Part shown: piece after piece, positions 1-15,290 of the stretch
How the letters are laid out: each line of letters opens with the position of its first letter
How positions within the stretch are numbered: the stretch's first letter is position 1
From: Opitutia bacterium
Lineage (GTDB): Bacteria; Verrucomicrobiota; Verrucomicrobiia; Opitutales; T3Sed10-336
Length of the DNA stretch: 15,752 bases
Assembly: GCA_050506795.1 (NCBI GenBank)
Contig: JBJHCF010000069.1
Coordinates: forward strand, 1-15,752
Direction: 5' to 3'
Notes under the pieces: model-generated
The model's input: only the letters and a program-made list of their open reading frames with translations
What the model was told of the DNA's origin: nothing
The model's database searches: none
Made by a program: the position numbers and the translations under genes

Positions 1-202
1 CGTCTGTGTGGCGTGCGGACGGTTGGTCCGGGAAAGGAAGACTCCGGCTTGAAGCACGGAGCTACGGGGAAGCTCGGATGCCGTAGCGCCCTGCTTCAGC
101 GGGCGTCTGTGTGGCGTGCGGACGGTTGGTCCGGGAAAGGAAGACTCCGGCTTGAAGCACGGAGCTACGGGGAAGCTCGGATGCCGTAGCGCCCTGCTTC
201 AG
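1..202. repeat. 103-bp-period tandem array of paired, oppositely oriented GTAG-REP hairpins (BIME-like); runs off the left edge
   Basis: 1-99 is repeated exactly at 104-202. Each unit has REP-A on the minus strand (40-65, 143-168; GTAG-CTCCG-T-GC-TTCAA-GC-CGGAG-TC) and REP-B on the plus strand (83-107; GTAG-CGCCC-T-GC-TTCA-GC-GGGCG-TC). The second REP-B (186-202) is interrupted by the IS. A GTAG foot followed by an imperfect hairpin is the established REP signature. Confidence 0.9.
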
Positions 203-229
203 ACAGGCAATAAGAGCAAGTGGAAAAAT

Positions 230-1435
230 TCAGACATTTTCGCTTCTAAATTCGAAGGGTTTTTCGTCGATGAGCACGGAAACGATGCGACGTAGGTTCT
301 TGCGCATTAGGTCGATGACAACCTTCTTGTGGTGATCGCCTTCGGCTTTCTTTTTTTGATAGTAAGCGCGCAATTGAGGGTCGTGGTTGATAGAACAGAA
401 GCTGGCTTGATAAAGGGCTGTGCGGGCAGCTTCTATGCCTCGCTTGGAAAGCTTTACCTTGCCCTTGTGTGTTCCCGATTCGCGTCTTCTGGGATCAAAG
501 CCGAAGAGAGCCTGTATTTTGCGGACGGTTTTCTTTTTAGTGGGCGCCCATTCCTTGATGTCGGGCGGAAGGAACGCCGCCAGGATTGGCGTGGAGACTT
601 TGCCAAAGCCGGGACAGGAGCGGATGAGCGCCTCGGTTTTGCGCAGGGAGGGATCTTTTTGGGCGGCCTCTTTAATGGCGTGATCAAGAGCGTCGATCTG
701 GGCCGAGAGACTCTCAATGGCTTCGAGCATGTGCACGAGCGCTTGCGAGCAGGCTGTGGCAATACTTTCGGGCGTTATCGAGGCGGCGGCGGCTTTTTGG
801 AGCTCTTTCGCCTTTGCTCCCAGGCTTTCATGAAGAGCTTCCTCGGAAATCCCGGCTATTTTCCCCGGGGTCGGAGCTTTTCGTAAAAGGCCTCGAAACG
901 CGGTGCTGGTGAGCTTGAAACCGAGCGGTTTGGCCTCGGGAAAAACCAGATCGAGGAGGTCTCCGGCGGACTTGAGCAAATTGGTTCGCTGAATGCGAAT
1001 GGCGGTACGCGAACTCACCAGAGTTTGGAGTTGGATTTTGTTGTTTTGCCCGCGGTAAGAAAAGCGTACCAGTGCCTGAGCATGGATACGTCCGATCTCG
1101 CAGAGGGTGTGAGCGTCGATCCGGTCATCCTTATTGTCGCGAATCGCATTGTCAGAAGAATGCAAGCGTTTGGTCATTAAAGGATTAATTGAATAAACCT
1201 TGAATCCTTCCTCATGGAGGCGTTCGCACCAGGGCAAATGATGCCGCCCGGTGGCCTCAATGACCACAGAAGTACGTTCGGGAACGAGCCCATGGCTCGA
1301 ACAGAGCTCTCGGAAGGCGCGCCAGCCTTCCATCCGCTTGACGGCCCGGCCTTCGGCCAGTTTGGCGCCGGACTCGTTTTGGATTTGATAATAGATGCCT
1401 TTGCCGTCAGTATCGATACCGATAATCCAGTTCAT
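230..1435 (-). CDS. IS110-family transposase/recombinase (DEDD RuvC-like N-terminal domain + Transposase_20-type C-terminal domain), 401 aa
   Basis: Motifs IIGID (D), VVIEATG (E), INP, KDDRIDA (D,D), CPGFG, FGFDPRRRESG (conserved Ser of the ESG motif), LSKRG...RTALY. Strong SD AAGGAGG (1441-1447 minus) 5 nt before the ATG. Confidence 0.96.
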   Translation of the reverse strand: MNWIIGIDTDGKGIYYQIQNESGAKLAEGRAVKRMEGWRAFRELCSSHGLVPERTSVVIEATGRHHLPWCERLHEEGFKVYSINPLMTKRLHSSDNAIRDNKDDRIDAHTLCEIGRIHAQALVRFSYRGQNNKIQLQTLVSSRTAIRIQRTNLLKSAGDLLDLVFPEAKPLGFKLTSTAFRGLLRKAPTPGKIAGISEEALHESLGAKAKELQKAAAASITPESIATACSQALVHMLEAIESLSAQIDALDHAIKEAAQKDPSLRKTEALIRSCPGFGKVSTPILAAFLPPDIKEWAPTKKKTVRKIQALFGFDPRRRESGTHKGKVKLSKRGIEAARTALYQASFCSINHDPQLRAYYQKKKAEGDHHKKVVIDLMRKNLRRIVSVLIDEKPFEFRSENV

Positions 1436-1448
1436 TTTATCCTCCTTC

Positions 1449-1710
1449 GGTGGGACAGGTTAACAAGGGATCCGGCGGCTTAGGCTTATGGCCAAGTAAA
1501 CTCAGCACGAGTGTCAGGCGATAAAAACACGCCGGATAAAGGGACTCCCTCCGGGTTTTGTCTAAGGCCAACAGACGTGCTGTTCGGGCGAAACTAAAAC
1601 ACCAGAGGGAAAAACCTTTTAGCCTGTCCCACCCCTTCAAGGCAAGGGCCGGACTTCGCCGAGCTACACCCCTGCGGGGCTCCACTCGTCCGGCCCTCCA
1701 CCTCATTGTG
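1449..1710 (-). ncRNA. Putative IS110 bridge RNA (5' hairpin + target-binding loop + donor-binding loop)
   Basis: Stems seen by eye (plus-strand coordinates): 1645-1654/1688-1697 (10 bp perfect); 1449-1459/1623-1633 (11 bp perfect closing stem); 1546-1554/1602-1610 (9 bp, one G-U); 1470-1477/1530-1537 (8 bp perfect); inner hairpin AACAG/CTGTT. Loop segments match the target (CGCCCG) and donor (GCCTG, CATAAG). Ends are approximate and expression is inferred. Confidence 0.8.
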
Positions 1711-1716
1711 GGGGGA

Positions 1717-1722
1717 ACCTTA
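1717..1722 (-). promoter_or_regulatory. -10 half (TAAGGT) of a putative circle-junction promoter; -35 half (TTGCTC) at 214-219
   Basis: Joining the two ends over one CT core gives TTGCTC-ttattgcctgtCTtatg (17 nt)-TAAGGT, directed into the non-coding end. Junction promoters are established for IS110 circles. Confidence 0.6.
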
Positions 1723-1726
1723 CATA

Positions 1727-1833
1727 AGCGGGCGTCTGTGTGGCGTGCGGACGGTTGGTCCGGGAAAAGGACTCCGGCTTGAAGCACGGAGCTACGGGGA
1801 GTGCAGAACTCGTAGGGTCCTGTTTTAGCCCGC
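1727..1833. repeat. Continuation of the REP array after the IS: rest of REP-B (1729-1736), linker, REP-A (1770-1795 minus), degenerate REP-B (1812-1833)
   Basis: 1733-1800 is nearly identical to 1-70, with a small difference in the GGGAAAGGAAG tract. GTAGGGTCCTGTTTTAGCCCGC matches REP-B at 16/22 positions and has similar CTAC-to-GTAG spacing (16 vs 17 nt). Confidence 0.85.
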
Positions 1834-1919
1834 AACCCTTTTGGCCGGATACTGTCGGAGAGATCGGGTATTTTCTTTTCAGCCAGCCACTTTTCCCTCA
1901 TACAAGGGGAACCACTCCT

Positions 1920-3803
1920 ATGTTCATCTTTAAACTCCATAAACTTGGCAAGATCCTTCGGGGCAAGGCCAACGCCTTCCAACTCATTTCCGCGGCGGTT
2001 CTCGGTTCCCTCCTTGGATTTATGCCCGGCTTCAGCCAGGCCTGGGGATTGATTGCCGCGTTGCTGCTGGTGTTGATCATTCTCAACGCCAATTTGTTTT
2101 TCGCCGGTCTGATCACCTTGCTGGCCAAAGGGGTGTCGCTCCTGATCACCCCGGTGAGTTTTGCCGTGGGCCGATTTCTTCTGGAAGGCCCGACCGAAGG
2201 GCTGTTCCGTTCCATGGTCAACGCTCCGGTTCTGGCGTTTTTCGGTTTGGAATATTATGTGGTGACCGGCGGACTCCTGGTCGGCCTGATCTTCGGCCTG
2301 ATTGTCGGCGTGGGCACGGTTAAAGCGCTGAAATCCTACTGGCGGAAGATGGCCCACGCCCAGAAGGATTCCGAACGCTATAAAAAATGGTCGTCCAAAA
2401 GATGGGTCAAAGTGGTTTCCTGGATTTTCCTGGGACCGGCCAAAAAAGACACCTACGAGGACACTTTGGCCAAGGGAAATATCGGCAATCCTATTCGCAT
2501 GCTGGGCGTGGTTTTCGCCGTCCTGGTCGCAGTAGTGGCGTTTTCATTGAATCTGCTTTTTGCCGATGAAATCGTGACCCAGGCGGTGCGCGGCGGTCTG
2601 GAACGGGCCAATGGCGCCACCGTCAATCTCGAGCGAGGCGAATTGAGTTTTCGCGAGGGCCGCCTGACTCTGAACAATCTGGCGATGGCCGACCCCGATG
2701 ACCTGGGTACGGATCTCTTTCGGGCGGCGTTGATCCAAGCCGACATCGACACCCGCGACCTCCTGCGCAAACGCTGGACCATCAACCGCCTGGTCATCAG
2801 CGAGGGCCGGCAGGGTGAGCCTCGAACCTTTCCCGGGATACTGACCCAACCACGGCCGCGTCCGGCTCCCGATCCCGATCTGGACCCGGATGAGAAGACG
2901 ATCGAGGACTATTTGCGGGACGCTCAAAAATGGCGGGAACGCCTTGCCCAGGTGCGTCATTGGCTGGATGTGCTTTCCGGGCCGGACGACGAGGAGTTGG
3001 AGCTTCCTCCCGATGTCGATCCGGAGGACGTCCCTATGCGCGAAACGCGGCGGGAGCGCATTGCCCGCGAAATTCGTGAAAAAGGTTACGATCAGGTGAT
3101 CGCCCGTCATTTGATCGAGGACAGTCCGCGCCTCCTGATTAGGGATATGACCGCCGAGCGGGTGCGGACGCGTCACCTGGAAGACGATACCCTCGACATT
3201 ACCGGCCAAAACCTCTCCACCAATCCCCGGTTGGTGCCGGAAGCACCGCGCCTCTCCATCCGTTCCAGCAGCGGGGACCTGGTTTTCGACCTGGCGTTGG
3301 GTGCCGCCGCCGCCCTGCGGGCCTCCAACGACCTGGAACTCGTGTACCGGAACCTGCCTTCCGATTTGATCGGCCGCCAACTGGCCGTTTCGGGCGAATC
3401 GCCGGTTTCCGGCGGCACCTTCGACTTTGAGACATCGGGACGTTTGAGCAAAATCGACAGCGACCTTCCGGTGCGGGTCACCCTCAAAAACACCACCCTG
3501 ACCATTCCCGGGGTGGGGCAAACCGACATCGACGAACTGACCCTGCCCATCGGCATCCGGGGAGCGATTGACAATCCTAGAATTTCCTTCGACGACCGCG
3601 ACCTGGCCGACGCTCTCGCCGCCGCCGGTCGCCGCGAGCTGGAAAGCCGTCTCCGGCAGGAATTGTCCGACCGTATCGGCGGTGACGTGGAGGACCGGGT
3701 GCGCGACGAAATCAGGGACCGGGTCGGTGAGGAAACCGAGGAACGGGTACGCGACGAAGTTGAAGAGCGCGGCCGTGACCTCCTCGATCGATTCCGGCGT
3801 TGA
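1920..3803 (+). CDS. Membrane protein: TIGR03546/DUF2062-like N-terminal domain fused to a TIGR03545/AsmA-like domain, ~627 aa
   Basis: Start moved to ATG 1920 (SD-like AAGGGGA at 1904-1910) because the longer ORF begins inside the REP array. Hydrophobic N-terminus (QLISAAVLGSLLGFMP...LNAN...MVNAPVLAFFGLEYYVVTGGLLVGL), then IRMLG...GLERANGATVNL...LAMADPDD...DLLRKRWTINRLVI, which resembles AsmA-like N-termini. Family assignment is from recall. Confidence 0.7.
   Translation: MFIFKLHKLGKILRGKANAFQLISAAVLGSLLGFMPGFSQAWGLIAALLLVLIILNANLFFAGLITLLAKGVSLLITPVSFAVGRFLLEGPTEGLFRSMVNAPVLAFFGLEYYVVTGGLLVGLIFGLIVGVGTVKALKSYWRKMAHAQKDSERYKKWSSKRWVKVVSWIFLGPAKKDTYEDTLAKGNIGNPIRMLGVVFAVLVAVVAFSLNLLFADEIVTQAVRGGLERANGATVNLERGELSFREGRLTLNNLAMADPDDLGTDLFRAALIQADIDTRDLLRKRWTINRLVISEGRQGEPRTFPGILTQPRPRPAPDPDLDPDEKTIEDYLRDAQKWRERLAQVRHWLDVLSGPDDEELELPPDVDPEDVPMRETRRERIAREIREKGYDQVIARHLIEDSPRLLIRDMTAERVRTRHLEDDTLDITGQNLSTNPRLVPEAPRLSIRSSSGDLVFDLALGAAAALRASNDLELVYRNLPSDLIGRQLAVSGESPVSGGTFDFETSGRLSKIDSDLPVRVTLKNTTLTIPGVGQTDIDELTLPIGIRGAIDNPRISFDDRDLADALAAAGRRELESRLRQELSDRIGGDVEDRVRDEIRDRVGEETEERVRDEVEERGRDLLDRFRR
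3669..3764 (+). repeat. Imperfect 48-nt (16-aa) tandem duplication in the charged C-terminal tail
   Basis: DRIGGDVEDRVRDEIR / DRVGEETEERVRDEVE; DNA GAGGACCGGGTGCGCGACGAA vs GAGGAACGGGTACGCGACGAA. Confidence 0.7.
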
Positions 3804-4090: not shown

Positions 4091-4612
4091 ATGAGATCCC
4101 TCATTCGCCTACCGGCGCTTTTACTCGCGGGGTTATTCGGCTCCGCGGCCGTCGCTTCGGCGGCCATTGTTGTTTTTAATTTCGAACTGACTCCGGAGCA
4201 GGAGACCGCGACGGTGGTTTCGGATGGGTTTGGATTCGCTAATGTGACCTTGGACACCGACACGAATGAATTGACCTGGGAAGTCACCTTTCAAGATTTG
4301 ACCTCAGGACTGACGGCAGCCCACTTTCATGGACCGGCGGATTTTGGCGAGGACACAGGGTTTTTCGTCAATATGAACCCCGAAACGGGAGTGACATCCG
4401 GGGTGCTCTTGGGATCAGATTTCATCTCGGAAACCGAGGCGGGATGGATTCTCGACGGTATGACTTACATCAACCTGCACACGGAGATGTTCGGCCCCGG
4501 TGAAATCCGCGGTCAGGTCGTTCCTGAACCGCGGACCTACGCTCTCGTCGCCGGGATTCTCGCTTTGGGCGGGGCCATTTTCTGGCGCCGCCGGAGAGCC
4601 CGACAGGGGTGA
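4091..4612 (+). CDS. Exported CHRD-domain protein with PEP-CTERM sorting signal, 173 aa
   Basis: Signal peptide ending ...VASA; CHRD motifs LTPEQE, TAAHFHGPA, YINLHTEMFGPGEIRGQV; C-terminal VPEP + TM helix + RRRR. Confidence 0.93.
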   Translation: MRSLIRLPALLLAGLFGSAAVASAAIVVFNFELTPEQETATVVSDGFGFANVTLDTDTNELTWEVTFQDLTSGLTAAHFHGPADFGEDTGFFVNMNPETGVTSGVLLGSDFISETEAGWILDGMTYINLHTEMFGPGEIRGQVVPEPRTYALVAGILALGGAIFWRRRRARQG

Positions 4613-15032: not shown

Positions 15033-15290
15033 GTGACCCGTTTCATGCAGAAGCTGGGCACGGCTTACACGGTATATTATAACCGGCGTCACCGGTGGCA
15101 TGGGCATCTCTTGGACGGTCGATTCAAGGCAAAGTTGGTGGAAGAGGATGAGTATCTGTTGAAGCTGTCTCGTTACGTTCATCTGAACCCGGTGCGGGTG
15201 GGGCGCTGGAAGAAGCGCTCGGTATCGGAACAAATCGCGTATTTGCGACGGTATCGCTGGAGCAGTTATCTGGATTATATCCAGAATACG
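15033..15290 (+). pseudogene. Fragment of a Y1 (IS200/RAYT-like) tyrosine transposase lacking the N-terminal HUH half
   Basis: RFMQKLGTAYTVYYNRRHRWHGHLLDGRFKAKLVEEDEYLLKLSRYVHLNPVR...YRWSSYLDY is the typical central RAYT-like block with catalytic Tyr (YVHLNP, 15174). The upstream frame runs into the fbaB terminator with no HxH motif; downstream, similarity appears to end near the 15303 inverted repeat. Confidence 0.85.

Follow-up and report, generated by a model that had tools for sequence, protein, structure and literature searches.

Thirteen REPs in the genome of an Opitutia bacterium hold 2–9 nt of the ends of an IS110-group element, each at the core into which the one assembled copy of that element is inserted. 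These scars almost certainly derive from the element, and the view that the 13 REPs are former insertion sites is strongly supported. The initial annotation of this DNA had considered scarless excision possible, and a precise exit would indeed leave nothing to count; loss is nevertheless often imprecise, and the scarless description is incomplete. The best overall explanation for these observations, to which we assign a probability of about 0.6, is that the element inserts by RNA guidance and is then lost through a copy-out gap that is closed at microhomologies.

The window, i.e., the whole stretch of DNA that was analyzed, comprises 15,752 nt and is contig C69 of a 4.94-Mb assembly in 82 contigs; it starts at the contig end (C69:1), where 89 nt overlap with contig C13. 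A 40% homologue carries the name Pelagicoccus mobilis, which suggests an Opitutales-like host. It opens with a 103-nt tandem unit composed of two inverted GTAG palindromes. A-type REPs (a GTAG-CTCCG hairpin) lie on the minus strand at 40–65, 143–168 and 1770–1795, the last in the array, and an intact B-type REP lies on the plus strand at 83–107 and reads GTAGCGCCCTGCTTCAGCGGGCGTC. A further plus-strand B-type REP is split: 186–202 is identical to the first 17 nt of the intact REP and ends in a copy of the core (201–202), and 1727–1736 is identical to its last 10 nt and begins with the second core copy (1727–1728). The first part is the right target of the element and the second its left target. 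Direct sequence comparison confirmed the claim that deleting 203–1728 rebuilds the REP base for base; removal of 201–1726 or 202–1727 restores it equally well, and the insert is 1526 nt long. The core was also correctly read as CT on the element strand, at both boundaries, and the insertion point was correctly placed on the 3' arm of the hairpin beside the loop; in E. coli W, IS621 is instead inserted in the CTAC foot. The description of empty and occupied sites side by side holds only in that an intact REP adjoins the split one; this REP is a tandem paralogue, with a spacer that differs by an indel, and not an empty allele.

Mis-assembly of the junctions was considered and rejected. A single unbranched contig from sequencing run X1, which may be the source sample, covers 173–1756 including both junctions, and variants that end at this right junction were found in runs X2 and X3 of another study; mis-assembly is therefore unlikely. 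Depth in run X1 was 17.8 over the insert contig and 14.2 over the flank, i.e., near single-copy. A second insertion was seen at the right end of contig C72, where another B-type REP copy runs into the core and 9 nt of the left end before the contig breaks. Joints of a circle or of an empty site were absent from four sets of contigs, which is a weak test.

The repeats have the features of GTAG REPs and REPINs: a GTAG start, a palindrome, inverted doublets, many intergenic copies and a Y1 transposase flanked by the same REPs. The transposase gene (C27:309-551, one of 16 Y1 hits) has 11 copies of these REPs around it, arranged in arrays on both sides within C27:1-1300, and is likely the RAYT of these REPs. 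A subfamily of REPs (e.g., C3:8858 and C6:70948) has an arm that starts with AC after the core and a left arm that compensates; it could descend from a two-base conversion by the element. Elsewhere in the window, a fragment at 15033–15290 resembles a REP-associated Y1 transposase and is fused to unrelated sequence right behind a terminator. It has no Pfam hit but contains an HLNPVR motif, which we take to be a sign of such transposases. A CHRD-domain protein is encoded at 4091–4612, and its tail is presumably PEP-CTERM-like.

Judged by its sequence, the insert is an IS110-group bridge recombinase element. The minus strand encodes a recombinase of 401 amino acids (230–1435) in which PF01548 (69 bits) and PF02371 (55 bits) both score over the cut-off, and in which the N-terminal DEDD and C-terminal serine domains characteristic of the IS110 family are both present. 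Among 46 sequences, residues D8, E60 and D104 are invariant and D107 and S320 at least 90% conserved. As in other members of the family, a short core flanks both boundaries; no end-to-end inverted repeat was present among the longest 25 of the 115 listed, and the ends were also read directly. The right end, which is conserved in relatives, has 27 nt (203–229, minus strand), of which the last 7 nt are the left donor, and the left end has 291 nt (1436–1726, minus strand) and contains the predicted RNA, which is the layout of the IS110 group and not that of IS1111. A -35-like hexamer in the right end (214–219) and a -10-like hexamer in the left end (1717–1722) would stand 17 nt apart across the predicted circle junction.

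The left end is predicted to encode a bridge RNA that directs a circular copy of the element to the CT core in GTAG REPs of the host. It folds well beyond shuffled sequences (z -5.5) into a 5' stem-loop (1646–1696) and two stems with internal loops, all on the minus strand, and two-sided changes occur at 10 of 48 consensus pairs among seven sequences. The first internal loop, the putative target-binding loop (1547–1609), has a left guide (1584–1590) and a right guide with handshake (1560–1567); it contains CGCCCG, the six bases that precede the core in the REP, and UUAG, which pairs with the core and the next two bases and, through a G-U wobble, can read both common REP variants. The second, the putative donor-binding loop (1470–1537; left guide 1514–1522, right guide and handshake 1483–1491), matches the junction of right end, core and left end, and changes together with the ends in two relatives (L070 and L072). 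In the first of these (genome G016) the core is TT and both donor guides are changed to match. The handshake bases would form one pair before strand exchange and three after it. A long-range stem (1623–1633 with 1449–1459, minus strand) encloses both loops and adjoins the ribosome-binding site (1441–1448); folding or processing of the RNA at this stem (1441–1459 with 1623–1633) may thus couple to translation of the recombinase. Rfam gave no match in window positions 1–2000.

The guides were compared with their targets in metagenome and genome loci from the same order, whose ends are conserved and whose guides vary along with the flanking sequence. The right guide pairs with the element's own target in every one of the 14 elements tested (permutation p 5e-5), and the left guide scores 58 on its own target compared with 49.9 when shuffled in 10 elements (p 1.5e-4), the elements in both tests being kin and not independent. 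Loci with a missing end or another core were omitted (L025, L027, L059, L061, L069 and L070). In this genome, 100 of the 134 sites that fit both guides are REPs. Relatives at 54–80% identity insert beside the loop and those at 35–41% next to the GTAG foot; when flanks were mapped by eye, 13 of 19 were in a GTAG-type REP or a clear hairpin. A GTDB scan with the single recombinase protein gave 22 loci, all distant (best segments 23–49%, full-length 26–28% identity), which were left unused.

The scars were found by examining the REP left halves, of which the genome has 341. The normal C follows in 313 and another base in 28, one of which is the element; 8 of the other 27 run on into ACAG, with which the right end begins, before reverting to REP or spacer (binomial P 6e-9). 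In four more REPs the core is preceded by the last 4–8 bases of the left end, and one, on contig C17, keeps both cores with ACATA between them, and hence pieces of both ends; both cores are also retained at C50:8734. When aligned to the nearest intact paralogues, the joins fall at short shared words (CAAT, GG, GGC, AG, ACA and CTT), and microhomology of at least 2 nt (2–4 nt) is present in 9 of 13 joins, with 0.17 expected per join. For this genome, both the scars and the microhomologies were assessed by eye, and two pairs have a join in common. The net deletion from the occupied site, scorable in 12 of 13 cases, is 1519–1528 nt (mean 1523.8, SD 2.6), compared with an element of 1526 nt. Five altered REPs (C7:138688, C23:27536, C29:57558, C9:50260 and C2:172838) had been dropped before counting, since a simple deletion, one substitution or decay suffices to explain them. 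Non-autonomous mini-elements at split REPs were also rejected: normal REP spacer resumes after 2–9 nt, and exact matches to the element elsewhere in the genome do not exceed 19 nt.

Twelve of the 13 scars are in REPs with a CCGG arm, which fits the left guide of the element poorly, compared with 144 of 278 intact REPs (Fisher p 0.004). The left target guide fits B-type REPs, and the donor-loop handshake (1483–1484) fits CCGG-arm REPs, as do these 12 scars; this mismatch suggests either that the guide was switched recently or that a sister element has been lost.

Five related genomes also have scars, in two of them at a different REP position, the insertion point of a sister element. A survey of 12 family genomes for the right-end scar pattern gave hits in G002 (3), G004 (5) and G006 (1), all of which bear such REPs, along with an element end in G001; the pattern was absent from the seven family genomes with at most one such REP. 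Several of these family scars are only 1–3 bases off an intact REP and are weak singly. They are located at CTTNAG, and the scars of G167 and G271, in which the sister element inserts after GTAGGAG, are located at GTAGGAG; of the 13 hits there, 8 proved to be scars and 5 element ends. In the order as a whole (401 genomes), more than two pattern hits occurred only in G167 and G271, and none of 30 background loci checked was in a REP pair. G224 has 56 such REPs and gave no hit, and one more scar-like case was seen in G400, in which the clade's transposase was not found. The left-end pattern was too loose over five relatives (control counts were higher), and three REP-linked cases (L163, L194 and L195) were kept by inspection. 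In total, G167 (95% complete) has six scars and G002 four. Longer remnants exist in other genomes: the truncated L025 (G001) and the internally deleted L027 (G004) both still end in REPs.

Imprecise loss of IS110 elements extends to IS621. The form of an IS621 scar, a join at a shared CAG, was predicted from the IS621 ends beforehand; no such join occurs in E. coli W, Sakai, 2013C-3264, WEC or JNU, and two were found in E. coli FORC_028. At the prpE-codB site, three alleles with identical flanks were found: empty (14 nt), occupied by IS621 (1293 nt, two strains) and scarred (15 nt). Occupied and scarred alleles with both flanks in common were also found at rhlE, and the IS621 scar deletion is 1278 nt for an element of 1279 nt. 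Of 5426 E. coli genomes, 188 contain a particular scar 30-mer, at 555 places in all and up to nine per genome; a second is found in 181 E. coli genomes and full IS621 in 1636. The listed carriers are mostly of serogroups O26, O111 and O103, so these counts are not independent; O39 and other lineages also carry several. Fifteen E. coli loci were retrieved, with four records searched for scars and four for iee, and the left-end scar pattern gave no hits in E. coli W01–W04. In FORC_028, the rhlE scar is followed by ybiE-side sequence (L224), compared with the ybiA side in L230 and L231, which suggests a larger rearrangement at a scarred REP. A 33-nt remnant of the IS621 right end lies outside a REP, just behind a 5S rRNA terminator, in E. 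coli R32_14_1F (L219), and many E. coli that lack the element have one 78-nt segment that is 92% similar to the IS621 left end.

How the scars arise is best accounted for by a copy-out gap with a microhomology switch, a step that we consider somewhat better than an even proposition. The recombinase would peel off only the top strand as a circle, leaving a 1.5-kb gap with its ends still held together. Usually the gap would be refilled and the element would stay. Sometimes, the free 3' end at the left target would be trimmed, or extended into the left end, by a few bases, and would re-pair through 1–4 matching bases beside the far junction; the element would be lost, with 2–9 nt of its ends left behind in the REP. 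The switch may be performed or boosted by a host polymerase that seeks microhomology, such as IEE; this is the least certain step. Two preprints report release of the top strand only for IS621 and CazIS110, with the donor gapped or intact. The opposing cut-out model draws on precise IS621 post-excision (empty) junctions detected in E. coli.

An unlikely alternative is that both strands are cut out without resealing, and that the host joins the chromosome ends by microhomology. The cut positions of IS621 (top strand after the core, bottom strand 4 nt earlier, as read here) predict a +4 scar, which is seen at C50:8734, L107 and L081; IEE has reported end-joining activity, and such a model has been proposed for it. 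However, two-strand cutting at these positions would leave at most two right-end donor bases and no left-end bases, and would yield only the +4 type, whereas all three types of scar would arise from a gap that has the bottom strand as template and a free 3' end at the left target. The remnants of the left end, kept in 5 of 13 scars, and right-end remnants of 5 nt exceed the yield of such cuts, several scars keeping 3–5 unshared right-end bases. No Ku gene was found in a search for one.

It is also quite unlikely that the whole element was never present, as would be the case if one strand of the donor circle had joined to the REP, and replication or repair had copied a few donor bases before a switch back. 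Such abortive insertion would be consistent with the dominance of top-strand insertion that is reported for CazIS110, with the excess of scars in the poorly matched CCGG-arm REPs, and with the three scars that keep the register of the empty site. It fits poorly with the two scars that keep both cores, one of them with both ends, and both scarred E. coli sites that were checked carry the whole IS621 in other strains. The CCGG bias is explained equally well by a sister element with that guide (L051, G001).

Replication slippage independent of the recombinase, in which the REP doublet hairpin would loop the element out as a bulge, is very unlikely. Nearly precise excision of Tn10 offers a likeness for loss through such a hairpin bulge, and slippage, needing no special enzyme, would fit the scarred genomes in which IEE was not found. 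An inverted REP lies within 130 nt of each of the 13 scars, but 278 of 310 intact REPs also have such a partner; as this is about 90% of intact REPs, the comparison is uninformative, and a hairpin-aided host route keeps a small probability. Slippage also fits poorly with the IS621-rich E. coli W01, W03, W09 and W10, which are unscarred by the right-end pattern, while the 188 genomes that hold one scar form often do so at several sites. Deletions of this kind for IS30 fell 1000-fold without transposase, according to bioRxiv 2023.06.07.543989. Finally, although six cases (C19, C38, L077, L080, L085 and L087) are only 1–3 bases off intact REPs and the five set aside are ambiguous, the reading of the altered REPs as ordinary variants, alike by chance or spread by the REP transposase, is exceedingly improbable given that the same four bases occur at two different positions in two REP families, in both cases where the resident element inserts, that the null probability is so small and that the three-allele E. 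coli site already contradicts it.

The role of IEE as the main helper is put at slightly less than an even chance. The genome has an IEE homologue, an AEP-plus-helicase gene 37–39% identical to IEE (C2:142143-144562) that is in two frames, being frameshifted in the assembly; it adjoins an antitoxin-RES pair and a type I methylase gene. An iee gene was found in four of six scarred relatives, namely G000 (this genome, frameshifted), G004, G006 and G271, and IEE was not found in G002, G167 or G224. In E. coli, iee was present in three of four scarred strains tested, the exception being W11, which has one scar, and was absent or interrupted in three of three unscarred IS621 carriers tested. The 60 scar genomes listed and the 24 iee genomes listed have three in common, compared with 0.27 expected if the two were independent and 2.1 if all scar genomes carried iee, the listings not being random. 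IS621 is reported not to excise even with iee in bioRxiv 2023.06.07.543989; that assay scored a restored resistance gene, so scars would have been missed. The broadest form of the proposal, that IS110 bridge elements including IS621 leave by one-strand copy-out and that IEE short-circuits gap repair and so cures REPs with 2–9 nt scars, is tentative and somewhat more likely to fail than to hold.

Papers of 2025–2026 disagree on whether IS110 elements leave by cut-out or by copy-out, and the family is under development for scarless editing. As natural traces of defined length and register, scars provide direct in vivo evidence on the fate of the donor site. They can be searched for in genomes already sequenced by means of a 15-nt pattern, mark former insertion sites after the element is lost, point to a host factor earlier scored negative for IS621, and are one way in which REP sequences diversify. 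If the proposed route is correct, scars would preserve, in thousands of genomes, a fossil record of earlier insertions, and a host route could make 'scarless' bridge editing imprecise.

The element was annotated as an independent case of an IS110 element using REPs as multicopy targets. It is an IS110 element with a CT core, REP targets and an origin apart from IS621, but it reveals no new principle: IS621, ISPpu9, ISPpu10, ISPa11 and ISRm19 are already known in REPs, so the targeting seen here adds only a new member. The recombinase is 28% identical to that of IS621 over 159 amino acids (401 compared with 326 amino acids in length). As described in the IS621 papers (Durrant 2024 PMC11208160; Hiraizumi 2024 PMC11208158; PMC13626964), IS621 likewise has a DEDD and serine recombinase, a CT core on both sides, a REP target, a left-end RNA with target and donor loops, a junction promoter (here predicted) and a handshake that grows from one pair to three; it differs in using the CTAC foot and not the site beside the hairpin loop. 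It is described there as excising scarlessly, which contrasts with the scars found both here and at IS621 sites. ISPpu9, ISPpu10, ISPa11 and ISRm19 share insertion in REPs, a 2-nt core and hairpin targets, but belong to other hosts and REP families; they are known from descriptions, and the portions available mention no end scars (Tobes and Pareja 2006 PMC1525189; PMC12288879; bioRxiv 2026.03.19.712850). The literature compared also includes bioRxiv 2025.10.25.684509 and bioRxiv 2026.08.31.748434. The search, with supplements (which may hold junction reads) and most subscription papers outside its scope, returned no paper on IS110 scars, footprints or imprecise excision.

The closest parallel is ISApl1, of the IS30 family, for which Snesrud 2018 PMC5821093 and bioRxiv 2023.06.07.543989 describe deletions of about element length between 2–4 nt microhomologies, with remnants of the ends, and explain this signature by a template switch during copy-out in which the ends are held together. 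The deletions average 1069.8 nt (SD 2.4) for an element of 1070 nt, and here 1523.8 nt (SD 2.6) for 1526 nt; deletions of near-element length (12 of 13) and microhomologies of 2–4 nt (9 of 13, by eye) are thus both found. ISApl1 differs in having a DDE transposase and inverted repeats and in not being RNA-guided, and the portions available of those sources hold no such loss for IS110. IEE is known to act on the IS3, IS1 and IS30 families (Calvo 2023 PMC9943667), and its link to IS110 is a correlation with exceptions. IS110 loss is thus often imprecise, in a manner known only for DDE copy-out elements.
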